Source of the DNA: Dickeya dadantii NCPPB 898
Lineage (GTDB): Bacteria > Pseudomonadota > Gammaproteobacteria > Enterobacterales > Enterobacteriaceae
DNA length: 32,000 bases
Assembly (NCBI RefSeq): GCF_000406145.1
Contig: NZ_CM001976.1
Location: 1,525,315 to 1,557,314 of the forward strand
Direction of reading: 5' to 3'
The position numbers were made by a program, and so were the translations under genes. Shown piece after piece: positions 1 to 18,996 of the stretch. Positions within the stretch are counted from its first letter, which is position 1, and each line of letters opens with the position of its first letter. Under the pieces are notes generated by a model. That model worked only from the letters and a program-made list of their open reading frames with translations, did not search any database and was not told where the DNA came from.

Positions 1-1307
1 AATGACCAAAATCTTGAAAAATAGCACTAAGGCAACGGTGCCATGTCCTTATATCAATGCTGGCAACATCAATCCCGTTCCAGGTAATACGACCGGATGT
101 GGGGTGGTACAAACGGCAGAGCAGCTTAATCAGTGTTGATTTACCTGCGCCATTTTCACCAACAATAGAAAGATGGTCACCAGCATGGATCGTTAGATTA
201 ATATTGCTGAGAACGTTGTGGCCGTTTTCATAAGAAAAGGAAACATTTTCAAACTTGATTTCATTTAGAGGAGGTATCTCAGAGAGGGGGTTGCTGTTCT
301 CCTGCGCAACGCTTTCAAGTTCTCGCAGTCGAGCAAAGAAACTAAAACAGACGCCGATATTAGCAAAGGAATACACCATCCACTGGCAAGATAAACCAAA
401 GAAAGAAATTGATTGTATGGTGCCCAGTAACCCTCCGACAGAAATTTTGCCTGCCTGAAGGTATTCAACAAACCAGTACATAACACCCAGGATAGATGCC
501 AGATATAAAAGATTCCATGGCTGGGGTCTGAGTAATTGTTTGCGTCTGACCTGATTTAGTTCATTTTCCAGCTCTTCGAATGCCTGCGTGTGTTTGGTGA
601 AAAAAAATGATGCTGAACGGAAAATTCTGACCTCTTTAGCTAGCTTCACATCAAGTAGAACAGCCAGATAATACCTTATCAGGCGAGCAGCGGTACCTTT
701 TCCCAGCAGAGCCCGAAAAATATCGATTTGTGAAAGCGCAACAGTAAAAGTGATCGGGATAAGCGGCAGAAGAAATGCCAGAGGAAACCACCAGACAACT
801 GAAGCCAGTACCAGAGACAAAGACAACAGCGTTAGTATGCCGCGAAATATATCAACAAGATTAACCAGAAGGTTCAGCGGACGGTGAGCAGCTTCTCTTG
901 AAAGAACCTCAAGATTATCGTGTATGTCCGGTTTCTCGATAATTTTCAGGTCTTCAATGCGGCAGGCTGCCTCCATAATAGTTCGTTGCGTCAGATAGGT
1001 GGCATGCTGATTCAGTATGCTTTGTAGAGTACTGATAATGGGAGCCAGCACGACCGGGGAAGACAAATGTCAGTGCCCAGAATACTGCCACGGTCATCAG
1101 ACCTGAATGATCCGGGCTACTGATGATATTTCCGAGCCGGATGCTTGCCATCACACTCATGGTAGGCAATAACCCCTGCAGGGCAATGAGGATGATAAAC
1201 AGCGTGGATAGCCATGGTGATCTCCTGAATAGCAATGAAAGCGAATAGGTCACCAGATTCAGTTTTTCTTTTACCTTCTGCATCAGAAAAGCTCCATTGT
1301 CAGGCAT
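1..1307 (-). pseudogene. ABC exporter with fused permease and ATP-binding domains (type I exporter, MsbA/MdlB-like); reading frame interrupted; 3' end lies beyond window start
   Basis: The minus-strand frame covering 1-1069 is open to the window edge. It reads ...PVVLAPIISTLQSILNQ...VRIFRSASFFFTKH...FENVSFSYENGHNVLSNINLTIHAGDHLSIVGENGAGKSTLIKLLCRLYHPTSGRITWNG (Walker A GENGAGKST). The hydrophobic N-terminus (track ORF 954-1307, ...LFIILIALQGLLP...AVFWALTFVFPG) is in another frame. Removing one base of the G4 run 1056-1059 would join them as ...ALTFVFPVVLAPIIS.... The probable start is ATG 1283 (TGATG overlap with the upstream stop) or 1307. Confidence 0.7.
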
Positions 1308-2137
1308 TTCCCGTTCGGGAAAATGACAAATTCATCAAAATGTCGGGGAGTATTCAGAATTAGCTCCATCGCATCCCTGGTTTCCGTTCTGTAGAGGGAG
1401 GATATCATTTTTACACGGTATGTCTGGTTACCCATTTTTTTGCACGCATGCCGTACAGAGTGTGTTGATAGTGAATGCCCATCTGGCGTTGCCAGAAATG
1501 TCATGTTTTCAGAAAACACGCCGTATGATGTGATATCGATGCTTCCATGAAATTTATTTCCGAGAGTCTGACAGAGCGAAGGGTAATGGAGCCATGAAGT
1601 GTGCGTTGCATGAAAGTTGTGGCAGATGACAAAAATTAATTCATAACCAAGCTGGATAGCTAACCCGATCTTCTCTGCCATAGCGGTCTCACGCTGTTCC
1701 GGCGTTGCTCCAGTCATACTTAATGTACTTTGTCGATCAAACTCCAGCAAACTGATCAACAGACGCTGCTCAGCAAGAGGAACTAAGCGAATACTTTTAA
1801 TATAATTTTCATGAAGTGTTGTGGATAAAGGTAAATCAATTCCCGCAATAACGCATGTTGCAGGTAAAGCACGGAGGAAAGTTGCAAACTCCTCAGAACG
1901 CATCCACCAGTACGCCGACGATGTAAGGTACGACATGTCCCCGGTATTTATTTTTCTAAAGCGTCTGAGTGCAAACACAATCAGGTCTATAGTCGGACAT
2001 TCGACAAGAACTATGCTACGTAACTCCCTTCGGAGCTTATGTATAAAGGCATTCCGAAACGCCCATGACTCGTCTGAACCATGGCTGTTCTGACCAATAA
2101 AATAAATATGCTTTTTAGCCTGCTTTGTATACAACAT
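1283..2137 (-). CDS. Erythromycin esterase (EreA/EreB)-like hydrolase, ChaN/TraB/TIKI superfamily
   Basis: 284-aa ORF with three motifs in the family-typical order: FIGQNSHGSDE (GExxHGxxE-like), RETAMAEKI (RDxxMAEN-like) and VICHNFHAT (AHNxH-like). Its start overlaps the upstream gene by 23 nt and its stop overlaps the ABC start. The family call rests on remembered motifs, not on an HMM run. Confidence 0.6.
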   Translation of the reverse strand: MLYTKQAKKHIYFIGQNSHGSDESWAFRNAFIHKLRRELRSIVLVECPTIDLIVFALRRFRKINTGDMSYLTSSAYWWMRSEEFATFLRALPATCVIAGIDLPLSTTLHENYIKSIRLVPLAEQRLLISLLEFDRQSTLSMTGATPEQRETAMAEKIGLAIQLGYELIFVICHNFHATHTSWLHYPSLCQTLGNKFHGSIDITSYGVFSENMTFLATPDGHSLSTHSVRHACKKMGNQTYRVKMISSLYRTETRDAMELILNTPRHFDEFVIFPNGKCLTMELF

Positions 2138-3641
2138 TCATACTCCGCGCTATAAGGTGATGTTGTCTTAATAAATACCGTTCATCACGAGAAAAATAGC
2201 TGTCAATCTGTTCAAGAGGGGTAGTAGGGAAGAAATCAGGGAATTCGTTTTTCTCTCCATCAAATAAACTGCGTGAATTAATAAAAAGATGAAACAGAGG
2301 AATGTCATAGTTTGTAAGGCAGGATACTTCATATAATATAAGACTCTGAAACTTGGGGTGTGAACCGGGGTAGAGTAAAAATTCATCAATTAACGCTGGT
2401 AGCTTTTCTTTGATATTTATGCTTGTCTCTGGGTGAATTATTTTGTTAATGATAAGTAGATAATAAGCTGTTGTGCGAACGAGGTAACGTGGTTTAATTT
2501 CTGAGTGGTTTTTCAGGAGGGAAATTATTCTCGCATGGTTTTTTTTTAATTTGAGAAACGTGTCGGTATATCCCTCTGTTACATCAGAAATATGCTTCTT
2601 AGCGTTCACCGGAAGACCGTGGTAGTGTGGGAAATTTTGTGTCCGTTTGGCAAATCCTCGCTCATATCGAACCTGAATATTTTCAGTCGCATCATGGATG
2701 GCGTGAGGATAGGTAAAAGACTGAAATATATTGGTGACAGCGGTAAGCGCTGATGTATGCCCTAGTCCATTCTTGACAACATCCGGGCTCTGAAGCAATC
2801 CGCTTTGATATATAGAACGTTCAAATTCCGGGGCGTCATCAAAAAAATACTGGAAGCTGGTTTCGGGATCTATCAGCCATACAGTGCCAGCATCTACAAT
2901 GAAGTTATCAAAATGACAGTCATTGATATTCAGAAGATCGGCTAGAGCTAAAATATTACCGTATCTTCTGTAAACTTTAGCTGCATCCACGCTGGAATCC
3001 AGGCCCCTGTTTTCGACAAATTCCTGCCACAAATGTGTTTTAAAACTAAGTGTCACAGGGCAGACATTAGCTAACCCGATAATGTTGCAGATCTCATTAA
3101 GTACATTTTCAATGCCAGAATCTCTGGGTTTGTAAATAAGCTTGAAGCTTCCGAGGGCTAGTATCACTGGTTGTTGTCCATTGTCATGCCGGTCACCAGC
3201 AGCTAAAGACAGCTTTCCCGGAGTTGAAAAAAGTGGTGGGCAATTATAAATATCAATAAGTAACTTATGTTCCTCGATCAAGCGGATAAGAAAATTATTT
3301 ATGTTTGCGATAGTGGTATCACAGATATGTTCTGCCAGTTGACTAATATATTGATTGTTGTTTCTTAGCCCTGGTAGCCAGGAATTATCATCATTCTTGA
3401 AATAGGAAGTATATCTATCTGAATGTGAATCGGGTTGTGTTTTCAGCCATTCATCGAAATTAACAACAAAATCAGGAAGGTGGATTTGATCAAGTGATTC
3501 AGAGATACTCAATGATACATCTGTAAAATCGAGGTGATGCAGACCATAATCAGTCAGCATCTGCTGCATCTTTTGGTTAAAATTTCTTAGATATGGGAAA
3601 TAGAGGTAAGCACGATATGGTTCTGACAGTATGTAGCGCAT
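2115..3641 (-). CDS. Stand-alone LanM N-terminal (DUF4135, lipid-kinase-like dehydratase domain) homologue without a LanC cyclase domain
   Basis: 508-aa ORF with an AAGGA Shine-Dalgarno 9 nt upstream of ATG 3641. It has the ordered signature blocks AAGDRHDNGQ (GDxHxxG), LIYKPRD (YKPR), NDCHFDNFIV (DxHxEN) and WLIDPETSF (IDxE) known from class II lanthipeptide synthetase dehydratase domains. The protein ends after this domain. Confidence 0.7.
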   Translation of the reverse strand: MRYILSEPYRAYLYFPYLRNFNQKMQQMLTDYGLHHLDFTDVSLSISESLDQIHLPDFVVNFDEWLKTQPDSHSDRYTSYFKNDDNSWLPGLRNNNQYISQLAEHICDTTIANINNFLIRLIEEHKLLIDIYNCPPLFSTPGKLSLAAGDRHDNGQQPVILALGSFKLIYKPRDSGIENVLNEICNIIGLANVCPVTLSFKTHLWQEFVENRGLDSSVDAAKVYRRYGNILALADLLNINDCHFDNFIVDAGTVWLIDPETSFQYFFDDAPEFERSIYQSGLLQSPDVVKNGLGHTSALTAVTNIFQSFTYPHAIHDATENIQVRYERGFAKRTQNFPHYHGLPVNAKKHISDVTEGYTDTFLKLKKNHARIISLLKNHSEIKPRYLVRTTAYYLLIINKIIHPETSINIKEKLPALIDEFLLYPGSHPKFQSLILYEVSCLTNYDIPLFHLFINSRSLFDGEKNEFPDFFPTTPLEQIDSYFSRDERYLLRQHHLIARSMNVVYKAG

Positions 3642-3661
3642 ACATCTTATCCTTTCTTCCT

Positions 3662-3692
3662 AAAAAAGGGCAGCCGATGGCCGCCCTTTTTT
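3662..3692 (-). terminator. Rho-independent hairpin between the peptide gene and the DUF4135 gene (probable partial terminator/attenuator)
   Basis: The plus strand reads AAAAAAGGGCAGCCGATGGCCGCCCTTTTTT. On the minus transcript this gives GGGCGGCC-AUC-GGCUGCCC, 8 bp including one G-U pair, followed by U6. On the plus strand the same position is an A-C mismatch, so the structure is better in the operon direction. Confidence 0.6.
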
Positions 3693-3693
3693 A

Positions 3694-3873
3694 TCAATTA
3701 AAGAATTCTTCAGTAATTTCCTGAAGCTCTTTGATTAGTACTTCTTCCGAGGAGATATTAATACCACCACCTCCGCAGTCGCAGGTACCACTGGCGCAGT
3801 CAACACCACTATTAGCCATATAACCGCGAATATCGGAGATCTTACTCGGTGCTACTTCGATAATACGTTCCAT
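3694..3873 (-). CDS. 59-aa Cys/Gly-rich peptide, candidate RiPP precursor (below the 60-aa ORF-track cutoff)
   Basis: My own translation of the minus strand gives MERIIEVAPSKISDIRGYMANSGVDCASGTCDCGGGGINISSEEVLIKELQEITEEFFN. ATG 3873 is preceded by GAGGTAACAA (good SD). It is the first gene of the operon and is followed by a hairpin terminator. Confidence 0.65.
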   Translation of the reverse strand: MERIIEVAPSKISDIRGYMANSGVDCASGTCDCGGGGINISSEEVLIKELQEITEEFFN

Positions 3874-4697
3874 TTGTTACCTCAGATTTTGTCAATTACT
3901 ATGTAAGTGGATAAAAATGTCTTCGCGAGATACAACTTTTGTGTACACGGAGAAAGCATAAAATGGGAATAATAGATTAAAATGTGATCTGTCTCTGATA
4001 AATCATCTGATGGTAATTTGATTTTTTATTTTCCAGTGATTTGAGTTTTTTTGTTCTTATGTATAGTTTCTTTTTCTATGATCTCTAATGTTTTTTCATT
4101 ATGTGCAAACAATATGCATTTTTACTATTCATGTTTTGTTTCATATTTTACCCCTATTGAGGGTGTGAAATTATGGTAATTAAGTGAAAGATTAAAAATC
4201 TAATGAAGGGACATTAAGCGATTATTCATTGCACGGACAGTAACATATATCAGATTTGGGAATTTTTTCTTTAGCACAAGTAAATAAATTTACTTATGGT
4301 AATAATTTATTTTGATGAAAGTTATTTATTGGGAGCGATAAAATATCGAGCAGATTGATTTATGTAGCGGACATTCTGGATGTACTAATGTCTATGATAA
4401 ACTACAGTTTGTTCAATGTGTTCGGAAAGAATTATACAGAAATGCTCGATCTTTAACTGAATATTAATGTTTGTTTAATAAAATTATAATGAATTTTTAG
4501 TTCGCAATAATGTTTGATTCATTCTCAGGGAAAGACCGTTAATTGGCATAATTACTGTATCTGGTTTCAAGTCAGCTTCACGGCTGTTCGGTGTTCACTT
4601 TACTTCAGCCATGGCGTATTGCATTGCTAACTAAAAGAATAGCACTTGTACTGACGGGGACTACTTCAAGGTTATCCATTAATCAATCTACTGAAGA

Positions 4698-5044
4698 CTA
4701 AGGCAACATGATGGCTATTTTCTCTACTCTGGGTATTAACGAAGGAGACATCCGCTTACCGGTCACGACACCTGCCAAATTCAATGCAGCGCTGTTTTCA
4801 CCCGCCCCTTCTGTAATGCGTAACGCATGATGGTGCACAGGTGCTGCCGGGTACGGGACGCCACTCCCAGCAAGCCTTTTTTCTCTATGCCTTTCAGCAG
4901 GTCGATGAAATGGCGGGGTTTCAGCTCCGTGACGGGCTGGTGCCCGATGACCGGAAAGAGATGGTTGTTCGTGCTGGCAAGCAGACGAACGGCATGGTTC
5001 TCTGGCCATGTCCGGTTGCGCTTATGCCAGTCCACACTAACATG
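4698..5044 (-). pseudogene. P4-type (tyrosine) integrase fragment, truncated at both ends and frameshifted
   Basis: Track ORF 4781-5035 (DWHKRNRTWPENHAVRLL...LFPVIGHQPVTELKPRHFIDLLKGIEKKGLLGVASRTRQHLCTIMRYALQKG) matches the N-terminal SAM-like/arm region of CP4-57/P4 integrases. The continuation (ALNLAGVVTGKRMSPSL...) is in another frame (ORF 4698-5009). The catalytic domain is absent. Confidence 0.75.
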
Positions 5045-5078
5045 TCAGCAACACTGATATAAGACCGCAAATTTAATT

Positions 5079-5507
5079 TTAAGTTTTTTGGCGAGAAAAT
5101 CTTATCTTGACGGGGCTTCCATTCAAAGTCAGTGAGCGTACCTCACCAGGTATCATGACGCCAGCCCAGTTAAACGTCTTCTCATTGCGCACAGCCTGAA
5201 AACGAACAGTATATTCCTGATTTTCCTTCTTAACCTGGAGCGTAAGTAACTCCGATTTTCCATTGCTCTGTGCATAGTGAGTTTGTGGGACAACAAGGCC
5301 TATTCCCTGAGGTGGGAACGGTTTTCCGTTGATTTCAACCAGCAACCAGAAAGATTCATTTGGGTCGCCACACTCCTTTACTGTCTGCTTAGGTTCTCCA
5401 AATGCTTCGAAAGTTACTGTTGGGCATAGCTCTGGAAACTCACTGGCGGCATTGCTAGCGTTTGAAATGAAAAATGCAAGAGCGGGGATGAGTATCTGAA
5501 TTTTCAT
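5079..5507 (-). CDS. Hypothetical small secreted protein (N-terminal signal peptide)
   Basis: 142-aa ORF. Its N-terminus MKIQILIPALAFFISNASNA/ASE has an n-h-c signal-peptide layout with an AxA-like cleavage site. I recognise no family. Confidence 0.55.
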   Translation of the reverse strand: MKIQILIPALAFFISNASNAASEFPELCPTVTFEAFGEPKQTVKECGDPNESFWLLVEINGKPFPPQGIGLVVPQTHYAQSNGKSELLTLQVKKENQEYTVRFQAVRNEKTFNWAGVMIPGEVRSLTLNGSPVKIRFSRQKT

Positions 5508-5685
5508 AGGAAGCCATGTTTTGTAAGGTTATTAAATCTAATCTGCAACAAACAAAAAAAACTTAATAGGAAAATTAATATGGCAACACAGAACTGGGAG
5601 GCCATCGAGACAGCATACTGGGATAGGTATGATACTTTTGCATGAAAGTGTCAGACTCGATTTTTACGCAATGTATCGAAAAAGA

Positions 5686-5721
5686 TATTCTGAAATGGTT
5701 TTCTGAAAGTATTCTGAAATG
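5686..5721. repeat. Three tandem 12-bp repeats (TATTCTGAAATG / GTTTTCTGAAAG / TATTCTGAAATG)
   Basis: Read directly: the units are 5686-5697, 5698-5709 and 5710-5721. Units 1 and 3 are identical and unit 2 matches at 9/12. The array lies 34 bp beyond the tRNA-Asn 3' end, on the island side. Confidence 0.85.
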
Positions 5722-5754
5722 CAAAGGGCTGCATACGCAACCCCTTGATAAATT

Positions 5755-5830
5755 TGGCTCCTCTGACTGGACTCGAACCAGTGACATACGGATTAACAGT
5801 CCGCCGTTCTACCGACTGAACTACAGAGGA
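5755..5830 (-). tRNA. asnT-like: tRNA-Asn (anticodon GUU)
   Basis: The reverse complement reads TCCTCTGTAGTTCAGTCGGTAGAACGGCGGACTGTTAATCCGTATGTCACTGGTTCGAGTCCAGTCAGAGGAGCCA. It is 76 nt with a cloverleaf, a CT-GTT-AA anticodon loop and an encoded CCA, and matches the enterobacterial tRNA-Asn as I remember it. Confidence 0.97.
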
Positions 5831-5848
5831 ATCGTTGGAACGGGGCGC

Positions 5849-5877
5849 ATAATAACGAGGTCTGCCGTGCATGTCAA
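5849..5877 (-). promoter_or_regulatory. Sigma-70 promoter of tRNA-Asn with GC-rich discriminator
   Basis: The minus strand reads TTGACA (5877-5872), a 17-bp spacer, TATTAT (5854-5849), then GCGCCCC. That is typical of a stringently controlled stable-RNA promoter, and it lies ~19 nt upstream of the tRNA 5' end. Confidence 0.6.
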
Positions 5878-5992
5878 AGGTGTAAACCACATTTTTGACG
5901 CGTTTGGCGAGGGAGTGCGCAATATCTCGACTTTTTCACACGATCGTCTTGATTGAACTGCGTTTTACGTTATGTCGCGGTGGTAAAACAGC

Positions 5993-6022
5993 GGGCCGGC
6001 AGTCGCGCGATGCTGCCGGCCC
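5993..6022 (-). terminator. Hairpin terminator downstream of lacZ
   Basis: GGGCCGGCAG (5993-6002) pairs with CTGCCGGCCC (6013-6022), giving a 10-bp GC stem. On the minus transcript it is followed by GCUGUUUU. Confidence 0.6.
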
Positions 6023-6029
6023 GGCGGGG

Positions 6030-9158
<3,129 letters not shown>

Positions 9159-16811: not shown

Positions 16812-18962
16812 TTAACCGGCCACTTCCGCTTCTTTACGCAGACGGGCTTTCAGCGCGCTGTACTCCTGTACGACGTAGTTCTCCGCCCAGTTCTGGTCGG
16901 CGATCGGTTCCAGTTTCACCGCGCAGTGCTTGTATTCCGGCGTCTTGGCGATCGGGTCCACTTCGTCCAGCGTCAGTTCGTTACAGGCGCCAATCCACCA
17001 CTGATAGGTCATGTAAACCGCGCCCTTGTTGATGCGCTCGCTGACCATCGCCCGGCTGATCACCTTGCCGCGGCGTGACGCCACCCATGTTAGTTGTTGA
17101 TCGCGAATGCCGAGACGAGCGGCGTCTTCCGGGTTCATCTGCACGTAGCCCGGCTCGTCCGCCAATGTTTGCAGCGCGGTGCAGTTGCCGGTCATGGAGC
17201 GGCAGGAGTAGTGACCGACTTCGCGCACCGTGGAGAGCACCAGCGGGTAGTCGGCGTCGGTCTGCTCCATCGGCGGGTGCCATTCGGTCGCAAACAGCAG
17301 CCCTTTGCCGTTCGGGCGGTCGAACTGGTTGCCGGCGTACAGCCACGGCGTGCCTGGGCTGTCTTCGGTCAGGCACGGCCACGGCACATAGCCCAGACCG
17401 GCCATTTTCTCGTAGGTAGCGCCGTAATAGAGCGGGCACAGATTGCGCAGCTCATCCCAGATTTCATTGGTGTTGTTGTAGTGCATCGGGTAGCCCAGCG
17501 CGGTCGCCATCAGGCTGATGATTTCCCAGTCCGGCTTGACGTTGCCCTGCGGTTCCACCGCCTTGTAGAAACGCTGGAAGCCACGGTCGGCGGCCGAATA
17601 CACCCCTTCATGCTCGCCCCAGGAGGTGGCGGGGAAGATCACGTCCGCCACGGCGGCGGTCTTGGTCATGAAGATGTCCTGAACGATCAGCAATTCCAGC
17701 TGGTTGAAGGTTTCGCGCACCACCGACAGGTCCGGCTCGGTTTGCAATGGGTCTTCGCCCATCAGGTAGTTGGCCTTGATCTTGCCTTCCTTGATCATGT
17801 GCGGCACGTCGGTCAGCGAGTAGCCGATGCGGTCGGACAACGACGGCACGCCCCAGGCTTTGGCGAATTTTTCGCGCACGTCCGCGTCGGTGACTTGTTG
17901 GTAGCCGGGGAACTGGTTCGGCAGCGCGCCCATATCGCAGGCGCCCTGTACGTTGTTCTGGCCGCGTACCGGGCCGACGCCGACATTCGGACGGCCGAGG
18001 TTACCGGTGAGCAACGCCAGGCCGGACAGACCTTTCACCACGTCCACGCCCTGCGTCCACTGGGTGACGCCCATGCCCCACAGAATGGTGGCGGACGGCG
18101 CGGCGGCGTACATACGAATGGCGTCACGGATCAGCTGCGGGTCGAGACCGGTGATGTCCGCCACGTATTCCGGCGTGTATTTCGCCACCAGATTGCGGTA
18201 TTCCTCGAACCCTTCGGTATGTTGCGCCACGAAATTCGCGTTATACAGCCCTTCATTGAGCAACACGTTGGCGAAAGCGTTGACCAGCGCCATGTTGGAA
18301 CCGTTCTTCAGCGGCAGCCACAGGTCGGCGATGCGGGCGGTTTCGATGTGCCGCGGGTCGCAGACGATGATTTTAGCGCCGCGTTCTTTGGCCTTGATGA
18401 TGCGACGCGCCACAATCGGGTGAGAGTCGGCGGCGTTGTAGCCGAACACCAGAATGCAGTCGGTGTGTTCGATTTCGCAAATCGAGTTACTCATCGCGCC
18501 GTTGCCCAGCGTTACCTGCAGGCCGGAAACCGACGGGCCGTGACAGACGCGGGCGCAGCAGTCGATGTTGTTGGTGCCGGTGACCGCGCGGGCGAATTTC
18601 TGCATCACATAGTTGGTTTCGTTGCCCGGCCCGCGGGACGAACCGGTGTGCATGATGGCGTCCGGACCGTATTTTTCCTTGATGGCTTTCAGGCGGGAAC
18701 TGGCGAAGTCGATGGCTTCGTCCCAGGACACCACCTCAAACGGCGCGCCTTTCTGGCGGCGGATCATCGGTTGCTTCAGCCGTGGGGTTAACAGCTTGGT
18801 GTCGTTGAGAAAATCCCAGCCGTAATAGCCTTTCAGGCACAGCTCGCCTTCGTTGGTCAGGCCGTTGGCGCCTTCCGCGCCGACCACTTTGCCGTTTTCC
18901 ACCAACAGGTTAATTTTGCAGCCTGACCCACAGTAAGGGCAGACGGTAATTACTTTCTGCAT
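16812..18962 (-). CDS. fdhF: Formate dehydrogenase H, cysteine-containing variant (no in-frame UGA)
   Basis: The track ORF starts at 18980. ATG 18962 (MQKVITVCPYCGSGCKINL...) aligns with the E. coli FdhF N-terminus and has an AAGGAG SD upstream. The active-site block reads NNIDCCARVCHGPSV, with TGT (18543-18545) where E. coli has UGA-Sec140. Confidence 0.93.
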   Translation of the reverse strand: MQKVITVCPYCGSGCKINLLVENGKVVGAEGANGLTNEGELCLKGYYGWDFLNDTKLLTPRLKQPMIRRQKGAPFEVVSWDEAIDFASSRLKAIKEKYGPDAIMHTGSSRGPGNETNYVMQKFARAVTGTNNIDCCARVCHGPSVSGLQVTLGNGAMSNSICEIEHTDCILVFGYNAADSHPIVARRIIKAKERGAKIIVCDPRHIETARIADLWLPLKNGSNMALVNAFANVLLNEGLYNANFVAQHTEGFEEYRNLVAKYTPEYVADITGLDPQLIRDAIRMYAAAPSATILWGMGVTQWTQGVDVVKGLSGLALLTGNLGRPNVGVGPVRGQNNVQGACDMGALPNQFPGYQQVTDADVREKFAKAWGVPSLSDRIGYSLTDVPHMIKEGKIKANYLMGEDPLQTEPDLSVVRETFNQLELLIVQDIFMTKTAAVADVIFPATSWGEHEGVYSAADRGFQRFYKAVEPQGNVKPDWEIISLMATALGYPMHYNNTNEIWDELRNLCPLYYGATYEKMAGLGYVPWPCLTEDSPGTPWLYAGNQFDRPNGKGLLFATEWHPPMEQTDADYPLVLSTVREVGHYSCRSMTGNCTALQTLADEPGYVQMNPEDAARLGIRDQQLTWVASRRGKVISRAMVSERINKGAVYMTYQWWIGACNELTLDEVDPIAKTPEYKHCAVKLEPIADQNWAENYVVQEYSALKARLRKEAEVAG

Positions 18963-18996
18963 GACATTGCTCTCCTTCATCGTACCGACGGCACGC

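Follow-up and report, generated by a model that had tools for sequence, protein, structure and literature searches.

Our analysis of a 32,000-nucleotide (nt) stretch of Dickeya dadantii NCPPB 898 DNA (contig NZ_CM001976.1, positions 1,525,315 to 1,557,314 of the forward strand; hereafter, the window) reveals a four-gene operon that includes a stand-alone DUF4135 protein, a LanM-type kinase/phosphate-lyase dehydratase domain without a cyclase domain (508 aa; window positions 2115..3641, minus strand). We consider it very probable that the operon makes a peptide that is made by the ribosome and modified after translation (RiPP), with the 59-aa peptide encoded directly upstream of the DUF4135 gene as the substrate. 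We hold it probable, with less assurance, that the stand-alone enzyme dehydrates conserved Ser/Thr residues of that peptide. The formation of thioether rings in the absence of a cyclase, suggested by residue spacing in the peptide, is a possibility to which we give rather less than even weight.

The 508-aa protein is, by profile comparison, a member of the Pfam DUF4135 family. In particular, Pfam PF13575 matches it with an E-value (E) of 3.7e-70 and a score of 237.4 bits against a cutoff of 29, the match spanning residues 100-451 of the protein and positions 5-376 of the 378 positions of the profile. The NCBIfam LanM model TIGR03897 scores 205 bits, below its curated cutoff of 304, and its alignment is confined to model positions 5-519 of 932, corresponding to the first half of the model. 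The LanC-like domain PF05147 has no match in the protein, which ends at residue 508; no LanC-like domain was found in the 10 large open reading frames (ORFs) scanned between 12 and 32 kb of the window, and the gene tables of related loci with called genes showed no LanC-like gene. Because the protein has no cyclase domain and scores under the TIGR03897 cutoff, its sequence indicates that it is not a LanM in the defining sense. A sequence-only reading of this DNA had proposed just such a protein, DUF4135-like and lacking the cyclase half of LanM, from four short blocks in LanM-like order. The profile scores bear out the proposal, and all four blocks are present in the ORF in the order that had been given: GDRHDNG (residues 149-155; window 3197-3177), YKPRD (residues 170-174; window 3134-3120), DCHFDN (residues 241-246; window 2921-2904), and LIDPE (residues 256-260; window 2876-2862). 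Judged from the sequence, a chance origin of four ordered LanM-like blocks is excluded by a wide margin.

The predicted fold agrees with this assignment. A phmmer search of the protein against the PDB retrieves only the two solved LanMs, LicM2 (4e-17) and CylM (8e-17). An AlphaFold2 (AF2) model, computed with 20 family sequences as input, has a mean predicted local distance difference test score (pLDDT) of 83.2, and its top Foldseek matches are LicM2 (E 2.8e-21; query-normalised template modelling score, TM, 0.74) and CylM (E 5.9e-20; query-normalised TM 0.71), followed by the lipid kinases PI3K and VPS34. As far as the model indicates, the ranking of the lipid kinases mirrors the known kinship of the CylM dehydratase domain.

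The catalytic residues were placed by alignment with CylM and residue counting. In CylM, K274, D347, H349, N352, and D364 make up the phosphorylation active site and are needed for dehydration, while D252, H254, R506, and T512 are needed for phosphate elimination, and phosphopeptides accumulate in the elimination mutants (PMC4550811). The corresponding residues of the window protein are K171, D241, H243, N246, and D258 for phosphorylation, and D150, H152, R385, and T391 for elimination. In the family alignment all nine positions, comprising Asp, His, Lys, and Asn residues together with the elimination Arg and Thr, are invariant (20 of 20 members), and among DUF4135 representatives the catalytic residues are kept in 73-74 of 74 short proteins and 72-74 of 74 long ones. 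On alignment, the DUF4135 enzyme holds every residue known to be necessary for both half-reactions, and this full set argues for dehydration over phosphorylation alone.

The protein belongs to a family of uniform architecture. A search of 5.8 billion proteins yielded approximately 22 close relatives, from Dickeya, Pectobacterium, Citrobacter, Serratia, Pantoea, Buttiauxella, Enterobacter, Erwinia, and Salmonella, and a genome scan added Erwinia oleae, Scandinavium, and Dryocola. The full-length close relatives are all 497-527 aa long with PF13575 as sole domain, so that length is uniform across at least 10 genera; NCBI gives the protein the name 'type 2 lanthipeptide synthetase LanM'. A profile search run over 1.84 billion cluster representatives gave 7,599 matches, in which the approximately 45 best matches after the family itself are nearly all 500-560 aa long, and full-length LanMs (approximately 900-1100 aa) enter the list only from approximately E 1e-47. 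The DUF4135 regions of 148 representatives (sampled from the 150 best matches to the family profile) were placed in a neighbour-joining tree without support values; there the window protein lies within a 64-tip clade of exclusively short proteins, in which the Enterobacterales proteins form a 9-tip subclade on a long stem. Short DUF4135 proteins therein form a clade of their own apart from full-length LanM. A tblastn search of PLSDB plasmids found no close relative, returning ordinary LanMs alone at 22-28% identity, and a blastn search of 5,426 E. coli genomes found no match. Distant relatives were gathered by a metagenome scan run with a 9-sequence alignment, and in these the combination of peptide and short DUF4135 gene, often with an ABC (ATP-binding cassette) exporter, recurs.

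Two of the more distant loci contain further genes. At a metagenomic locus (L020:5152-7471), a GNAT acetyltransferase and a radical-SAM protein follow a short DUF4135 gene and a motif-bearing precursor, which suggests further tailoring in some branches. On a plasmid of Spirosoma oryzicola (L033; NZ_CP089546.1, locus 3983-5518), a 511-aa stand-alone 'LanM' is encoded beside precursors with an NHLP leader and a TOMM propeptide, a methyltransferase, TolC, and an NHLP secretion protein; other RiPP classes have therefore recruited stand-alone DUF4135 enzymes too.

The operon in the window comprises four minus-strand genes, at 3694..3873, 2115..3641, 1283..2137, and 1..1283. The same order is found in every related locus, namely a 55-67-aa ORF, the DUF4135 gene, a gene for a 274-287-aa protein, and a gene for an ABC protein of approximately 590 aa, and it is kept in Dickeya, Pantoea, Erwinia, Buttiauxella, Scandinavium, Dryocola, and uncultured contigs. 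Given a precursor gene upstream and an exporter downstream, what had been noticed as a lone enzyme would be part of a complete RiPP operon.

The first gene (3694..3873, minus strand) has a GAGG Shine-Dalgarno sequence and, lying just upstream of the DUF4135 gene, encodes the putative 59-aa precursor peptide MERIIEVAPSKISDIRGYMANSGVDCASGTCDCGGGGINISSEEVLIKELQEITEEFFN. A precursor gene is called and conserved immediately upstream of the DUF4135 gene in every related locus. A profile search identified 23 family peptides, all 'hypothetical' or nameless, and each contig that was traced from a family peptide bears a short DUF4135 gene; no NCBIfam model matches the family peptides. The 59-aa peptide has a conserved N-terminal segment and a core with the motif S22-x3-C26-x-S28-G-T30-C31-D32; the Gly/Cys linker after the core is hypervariable, and the acidic C-terminal helix, which ends in FF, is again conserved. 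Across the Enterobacterales peptides, the N-terminus reads M[EN]RI[IV][ED][VI]...IRGYMANS, the core xxDC[AG]SGTC[DE], and the C-terminus, acidic and amphipathic, [IV][ST]x[ED][DE]xLxKELxExxxxFF, while the linker is hypervariable, rich in Gly, Cys, and His, and not fixed in length.

The core is retained well beyond Enterobacterales. The motif [ST]-x3-C-x-[ST]-G-x-C is present in 24 of 25 family peptides, including distant metagenomic ones encoded with enzymes that are approximately 22-26% identical, in which the termini differ and the core is kept (...SGQPCGTGTCD..., ...STKCCGTGTC..., ...STKCCASGTC..., ...TGQGCGTGVC..., ...TTKCCATGTC..., and ...TTKDCATGDC...). In this geometry, one hydroxy residue precedes the first conserved Cys by 4 positions and another precedes the second by 3. 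Such spacing is typical of small lanthionine rings and would allow two small thioether rings; it resembles the spacing of the A and B rings of nisin, which bind lipid II. Between Dickeya and Pantoea, the peptide is 75% identical and the enzyme 56%. Of six between-genus comparisons of core codons 19-32, five show 5-8 synonymous differences and 1 non-synonymous difference, and the most distant one (L012) shows 5 and 4. This pattern of codon differences is indicative of strong purifying selection on the peptide. Upstream of the precursor gene, window positions 3874..4780 (approximately 900 bp, approximately 38% GC) contain no ORF of at least 60 aa and presumably hold the promoter or regulatory region; a simple scan of the minus strand of this interval found no convincing sigma-70 promoter.

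Between the precursor stop codon, which it directly follows, and the start of the DUF4135 gene lies a terminator- or attenuator-like hairpin with a U-tract (AAAAAAGGGCGGCC-AUC-GGCUGCCCUUUUUU; 3661..3693, minus strand), identified as an inverted repeat and by RNA folding. The hairpin is a GC-rich stem between A- and U-tracts, with a folding energy of -28.2 kcal/mol (z = -5.45; 0 of 200 shuffles as stable). A consensus terminator scan overlooked it, and Rfam matched tRNA only over the whole window. Hairpins are present at the equivalent place in Pantoea, Erwinia, Buttiauxella, Scandinavium, Dryocola, L012, and the distant locus L020, with stems of differing sequence, such that structure is kept and sequence is not. 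The arrangement is consistent with partial termination, which would raise precursor mRNA relative to enzyme mRNA; partial terminators after the precursor gene are common in lantibiotic operons. The longest DUF4135 gene calls, of 525-527 aa in Pantoea and Pectobacterium (P0006 and P0011; L004:8001-8054), appear to be over-extended at the 5′ end because the hairpin region has been taken as coding: their surplus of approximately 18-20 codons covers the intergenic hairpin, and the conserved start is the methionine of MKY...

The fourth gene is present in the window as the 5′ part of an ABC exporter gene (1..1283, minus strand) that exits the window at the left edge and encodes an MsbA/HlyB-type fusion of transmembrane and nucleotide-binding domains. 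A domain search of the exporter found no C39 peptidase domain, which leaves room for a separate protease. DNA alignment with D. solani reveals a 1-nt insertion (C) near position 1052 that shifts the frame at approximately codon 76, and tblastn with the intact 593-aa D. solani exporter gives 98% identity with a frame switch. In one D. solani genome the exporter gene is split (241 and 326 aa). Several Dickeya lineages are thus losing the exporter, and with it probably immunity. In Pantoea, Erwinia oleae, and Scandinavium the exporter gene is followed by a gene for a DsbA paralogue (182 bits to the DsbA equivalog), and the Pantoea operon contig also bears IncFII RepA and TraI; the DsbA gene is absent from the loci of Dickeya, Buttiauxella, and Erwinia sp. 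E602. In the place of the DsbA paralogue, the most divergent operon of the Enterobacterales type has an extra gene (L012:11194-12012) for a 272-aa protein with a weak nucleotidyltransferase-domain match (E 5.5e-4). PADLOC gave no match for the DUF4135 protein, the 284-aa protein, or the peptide, and only generic ATPase matches for the ABC protein; with nothing specific found, a reading of the locus as anti-phage defence was rejected.

The third gene (1283..2137, minus strand) encodes a 284-aa protein with a predicted fold of the erythromycin-esterase/ChaN/Tiki superfamily (hereafter, the partner). It overlaps the exporter gene by 1 nt and the DUF4135 gene by 23 nt, the DUF4135 ORF ending at 2115 and the partner gene starting at 2137, and an overlap of 20-23 nt between these two genes is conserved among the loci. 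The sequence-only reading had described the DUF4135 ORF as overlapped by an unrelated gene. The overlap is as described; the gene, in contrast, strictly co-occurs with the DUF4135 gene as an operon partner and encodes a protein predicted to have an erythromycin-esterase-like fold, and the taxa of its 23 homologues are those of the DUF4135 family. The AF2 model of the partner has a pLDDT of 90.6, and its Foldseek matches in the PDB are Bcr135/136 of Bacillus cereus (2rad, 2qgm, 3b55) and EreC (6xcs/6xcq), with E of 9e-12 to 8e-9 and a probability of 1.0; HopBA1 matches more weakly. Neither Pfam nor NCBIfam, PF05139 included, matches the window partner, and ChaN/Tiki matches are found in 2 of 18 relatives. 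Its invariant motifs are GQNSHG (H19), E46-C47-P-T, C172-H173-N-F-H176 (CHNFHA), and S-L-C189, in which H19, E46, and H173/H176 resemble motifs of the Ere enzymes. The partner is found together with the Enterobacterales-specific peptide termini. Since the exporter has no protease domain and the partner tracks these termini and is missing from the distant loci, a putative role as a trimming peptidase or hydrolase is favoured, with self-protection or a novel cyclase activity as alternatives. In graspetide loci, Tiki/TraB-type peptidases and an Ere-like protein have been predicted to be leader-cleavage, maturation, or resistance factors (PMC8939145).

The operon lies on a low-GC segment, with a GC content of 38-45% in window positions 1-6000 and 59-65% in the rest of the window. 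A tRNA-Asn gene (GTT anticodon; 5755..5830, minus strand), identified by ARAGORN and Rfam, is likely the attachment site of the island, and a remnant of a P4-type (tyrosine) integrase, comprising the central domain only, lies between it and the operon (4781..5035, minus strand; Pfam Phage_int_M, E 1.9e-18). The D. solani copy of the integrase is longer and still truncated. Window positions 1..5034 share 96.9% identity with D. solani, D. dadantii proteins match the partner and the peptide at 100% identity, and positions 5035-6030 are not shared with the D. solani loci. Between the tRNA-Asn gene and the integrase remnant, a 142-aa ORF (5079..5507, minus strand) has a signal-peptide-like N-terminus and no Pfam, NCBIfam, or PADLOC match. 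A 315-aa protein (P0019) of some D. dadantii strains consists of DUF4135 residues 1-190 fused to the C-terminal approximately 45% of the partner; it is an internal deletion spanning both genes and a further sign of island decay. Judging by its frameshifted exporter and the truncated integrase, the operon of the window strain is probably in decay or silent.

Taken together, the most likely reading of the operon is a microcin-like RiPP system that combines dehydration, cyclase-independent thioether or disulfide formation, trimming, and export. We infer the identity of the substrate, the dehydration sites, ring formation, and the roles of the hydrolase and exporter. Specifically, a horizontally acquired operon on the tRNA-Asn island would use the 59-aa peptide as substrate. 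The DUF4135 enzyme would bind the peptide and catalyse ATP-dependent phosphorylation of S22, S28, and probably T30, and the same active site would eliminate phosphate to yield dehydroalanine (Dha) and dehydrobutyrine (Dhb), as does the N-terminal half of a class II synthetase. C26 (i+4 from S22) and C31 (i+3 from S28) would then add to the dehydro residues, giving two small thioether rings; because there is no LanC-type cyclase, this addition would most likely be either spontaneous, without an enzyme, or templated by the dehydratase. Leftover cysteines could undergo periplasmic oxidation, with the dedicated DsbA paralogue responsible in some genera and the host DsbA in the others. The partner would trim the leader, the acidic C-terminal follower, or both, or, alternatively, would hydrolyse product retained in the cell as self-protection, and the ABC half-transporter would export the product and probably confer immunity. 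The hairpin would keep precursor mRNA above enzyme mRNA.

Several observations weigh against parts of this proposal. There is no cyclase, so the thioether rings would be predicted from spacing alone, and the DsbA paralogue in three genera suggests that some cysteines remain free until export. The presumed core is the most conserved part of the peptide, which is unusual (in ordinary RiPPs the core is the variable part), and the family peptide P0220 is without the motif. Erythro_esteras matches to the partner are below threshold in 7 of 18 relatives (best E 2e-4), and a sequence-profile search against PDB sequences gave one chance match only, so the fold assignment derives from the AF2 model and Foldseek. 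Distant short-DUF4135 loci are without the esterase-fold partner, which is therefore not essential to the core chemistry. Finally, given the exporter frameshift, the split exporter, and the deletion fusion, the locus may yield nothing in the window strain.

A broader version of the proposal holds that the product is a cyclase-free lanthipeptide of Gram-negative Enterobacterales, with rings S22-C26 and S28-C31, and that the short-DUF4135 clade constitutes an overlooked broad RiPP class. We regard this version as tentative. The rings would be installed spontaneously, on a dehydratase template, or by the partner acting as a new kind of cyclase. A somewhat less likely outcome is a dehydropeptide with a disulfide and no thioether, in which C26 and C31 would stay free in the cytoplasm and be oxidised by DsbA after export, leaving electrophilic Dha or Dhb inside the disulfide loop. 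The absence of a cyclase and the dedicated periplasmic DsbA paralogue encoded after the exporter in Pantoea, Erwinia oleae, and Scandinavium would accord with such a product, as would the single-domain enzyme LanMD of the hominicin system, which gives dehydro residues without lanthionine. However, the DsbA gene is absent in Dickeya, Buttiauxella, and Erwinia sp. E602, and the strict [ST]-to-Cys spacing is what ring formation would need. In lanthipeptide chemistry, moreover, Dha with a Cys at i+3 or i+4 is expected to cyclise readily.

The partner could, in turn, be the missing cyclase, with C47, C172, H173, H176, and C189 binding a metal and activating thiols in place of LanC in Enterobacterales. 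Its invariant Cys residues flank the canonical Ere-type His/Glu motifs, it co-occurs strictly and is translationally coupled with the DUF4135 enzyme, and class V lanthipeptides have non-LanC cyclases of unexpected fold (PMC12291118). The fold family is, however, known for hydrolases and proteases, and distant relatives have the same peptide motif without the partner; we consider a cyclase role improbable. Marginally less credible is an enzyme that acts solely as a kinase, releasing a Ser/Thr-phosphorylated peptide without elimination, for instance for metal binding or signalling. The kinase fold, the build-up of phosphopeptides in CylM elimination mutants, and the potential of an acidic, Cys-rich peptide to bind metals are compatible with this possibility, but all four CylM elimination residues are invariant in the family and kept in 73-74 of 74 short-clade representatives. 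The remaining candidate, a functionless LanM gene that has lost its cyclase half, was rejected as extremely improbable despite the island decay (truncated integrase, frameshifted exporter, and D. dadantii deletion fusions) and the NCBI name 'type 2 lanthipeptide synthetase LanM', in that a length of approximately 507 aa and a conserved gene overlap are alike in at least 10 genera, the catalytic residues are invariant, 64 short representatives form a separate clade, and no cyclase-like remnant lies downstream.

The remaining window is core chromosome, encoding lacZ, a dicarboxylate symporter, an FhlA-like activator, a formate-dehydrogenase-like protein, and hydrogenase-4-type subunits. The formate-dehydrogenase-H-like molybdopterin oxidoreductase (16812..18980, minus strand) is encoded by a single unbroken 722-aa ORF and therefore has no in-frame TGA (selenocysteine) codon; E. 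coli FdhF has such a codon.

The short DUF4135 enzymes constitute a large separate clade with its own conserved precursor family and, in Enterobacterales, an esterase-fold partner. Lanthipeptide genome-mining rules in current use demand a LanC-like domain, and clusters built on stand-alone DUF4135 proteins are for this reason skipped or mis-annotated as LanM. If the product does contain thioether or dehydro residues, it would represent rare lanthipeptide-type chemistry in enteric and plant-pathogenic Gram-negatives (Dickeya, Pectobacterium, Pantoea, Salmonella, and Enterobacter), a natural test of cyclase-independent ring formation, and a candidate narrow-spectrum microcin in competition among soft-rot pathogens. 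The system is small, at four genes, and directly testable in E. coli.

Stand-alone DUF4135 dehydratases are a known kind of enzyme, recent and thinly studied, and the operon and its [ST]x3Cx[ST]GxC precursor family are apparently undescribed. Among 8 million openly searchable papers, no description was found of the operon, the precursor family, the esterase-fold partner, or a lanthipeptide-type system in these Enterobacterales. The closest structural comparison is with class II LanM (CylM, 5dzt; LicM2, 6st5), the N-terminal dehydratase domain of which is homologous to the DUF4135 protein by profile and predicted structure. Every phosphorylation and elimination residue is common to both, a gene-encoded peptide containing Ser, Thr, and Cys adjoins the enzyme gene, and an ABC exporter is in the cluster. 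Unlike LanM, which is approximately 900-1100 aa long with a LanC-like cyclase domain, the DUF4135 protein has 508 aa without one and falls in the separate short clade. The exporter, unlike those of LanM clusters, has no C39 peptidase, and the precursor has a conserved core and a conserved C-terminal acidic helix, whereas LanM precursors have a leader followed by a variable core.

Hominicin LanMD provides a published precedent, so that the architecture is less novel than the sequence-only reading implied. LanMD is encoded in the daptide cluster for hominicin in Staphylococcus hominis and consists of a single DUF4135 domain; it has been proposed to be a stand-alone dehydratase, a proposal that has genetic backing (PMC12749797), and it is required for hominicin, which has Dha-derived and Dhb residues and no lanthionine (PMC12749797). 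The likeness to the window protein, drawn from the published description, lies in a single-domain DUF4135 protein encoded beside a precursor in a RiPP cluster. The hominicin cluster encodes DapBCDM-type enzymes, a LanJ-like reductase, and a subtilisin, in a Gram-positive host, and the core of its precursor is reported to contain dehydrated Thr/Ser without thioether rings (PMC12749797). It differs from the present operon in precursor family, esterase-fold partner, and host group; no daptide genes of the hominicin type were found in the operon or related loci, and the precursor here ends in FFN, not Thr. In the dehydrazoles, the LanMbC enzyme CcaM is a DUF4135 dehydratase that acts outside canonical lanthionine formation; it is fused to a zinc-free class III cyclase domain that is needed for activity, and it acts only after YcaO azole formation and independently of a leader (PMC10676384). 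Neither a YcaO protein nor a fused domain of this type was found in any of the loci.

The partner resembles the Ere/ChaN/Tiki (TraB, PrgY) superfamily in its predicted fold and in its GxxxHG, E, and HNxH-like motifs. Compared with the Ere enzymes, it is approximately 120 residues shorter, has extra invariant cysteines, and is encoded in a RiPP operon. The operon as a whole invites comparison with microcin J25, the mcjABCD genes of which form a compact, mobile enterobacterial operon for a precursor, maturation enzymes including a protease, and an exporter that also serves as immunity. Microcin J25 has lasso chemistry, installed by an Asn-synthetase-like cyclase, and its maturation enzymes are not homologous to those encoded here, but the two systems have in common a compact operon logic, a dedicated hydrolase, an ABC exporter, no separate immunity gene, and horizontal mobility.

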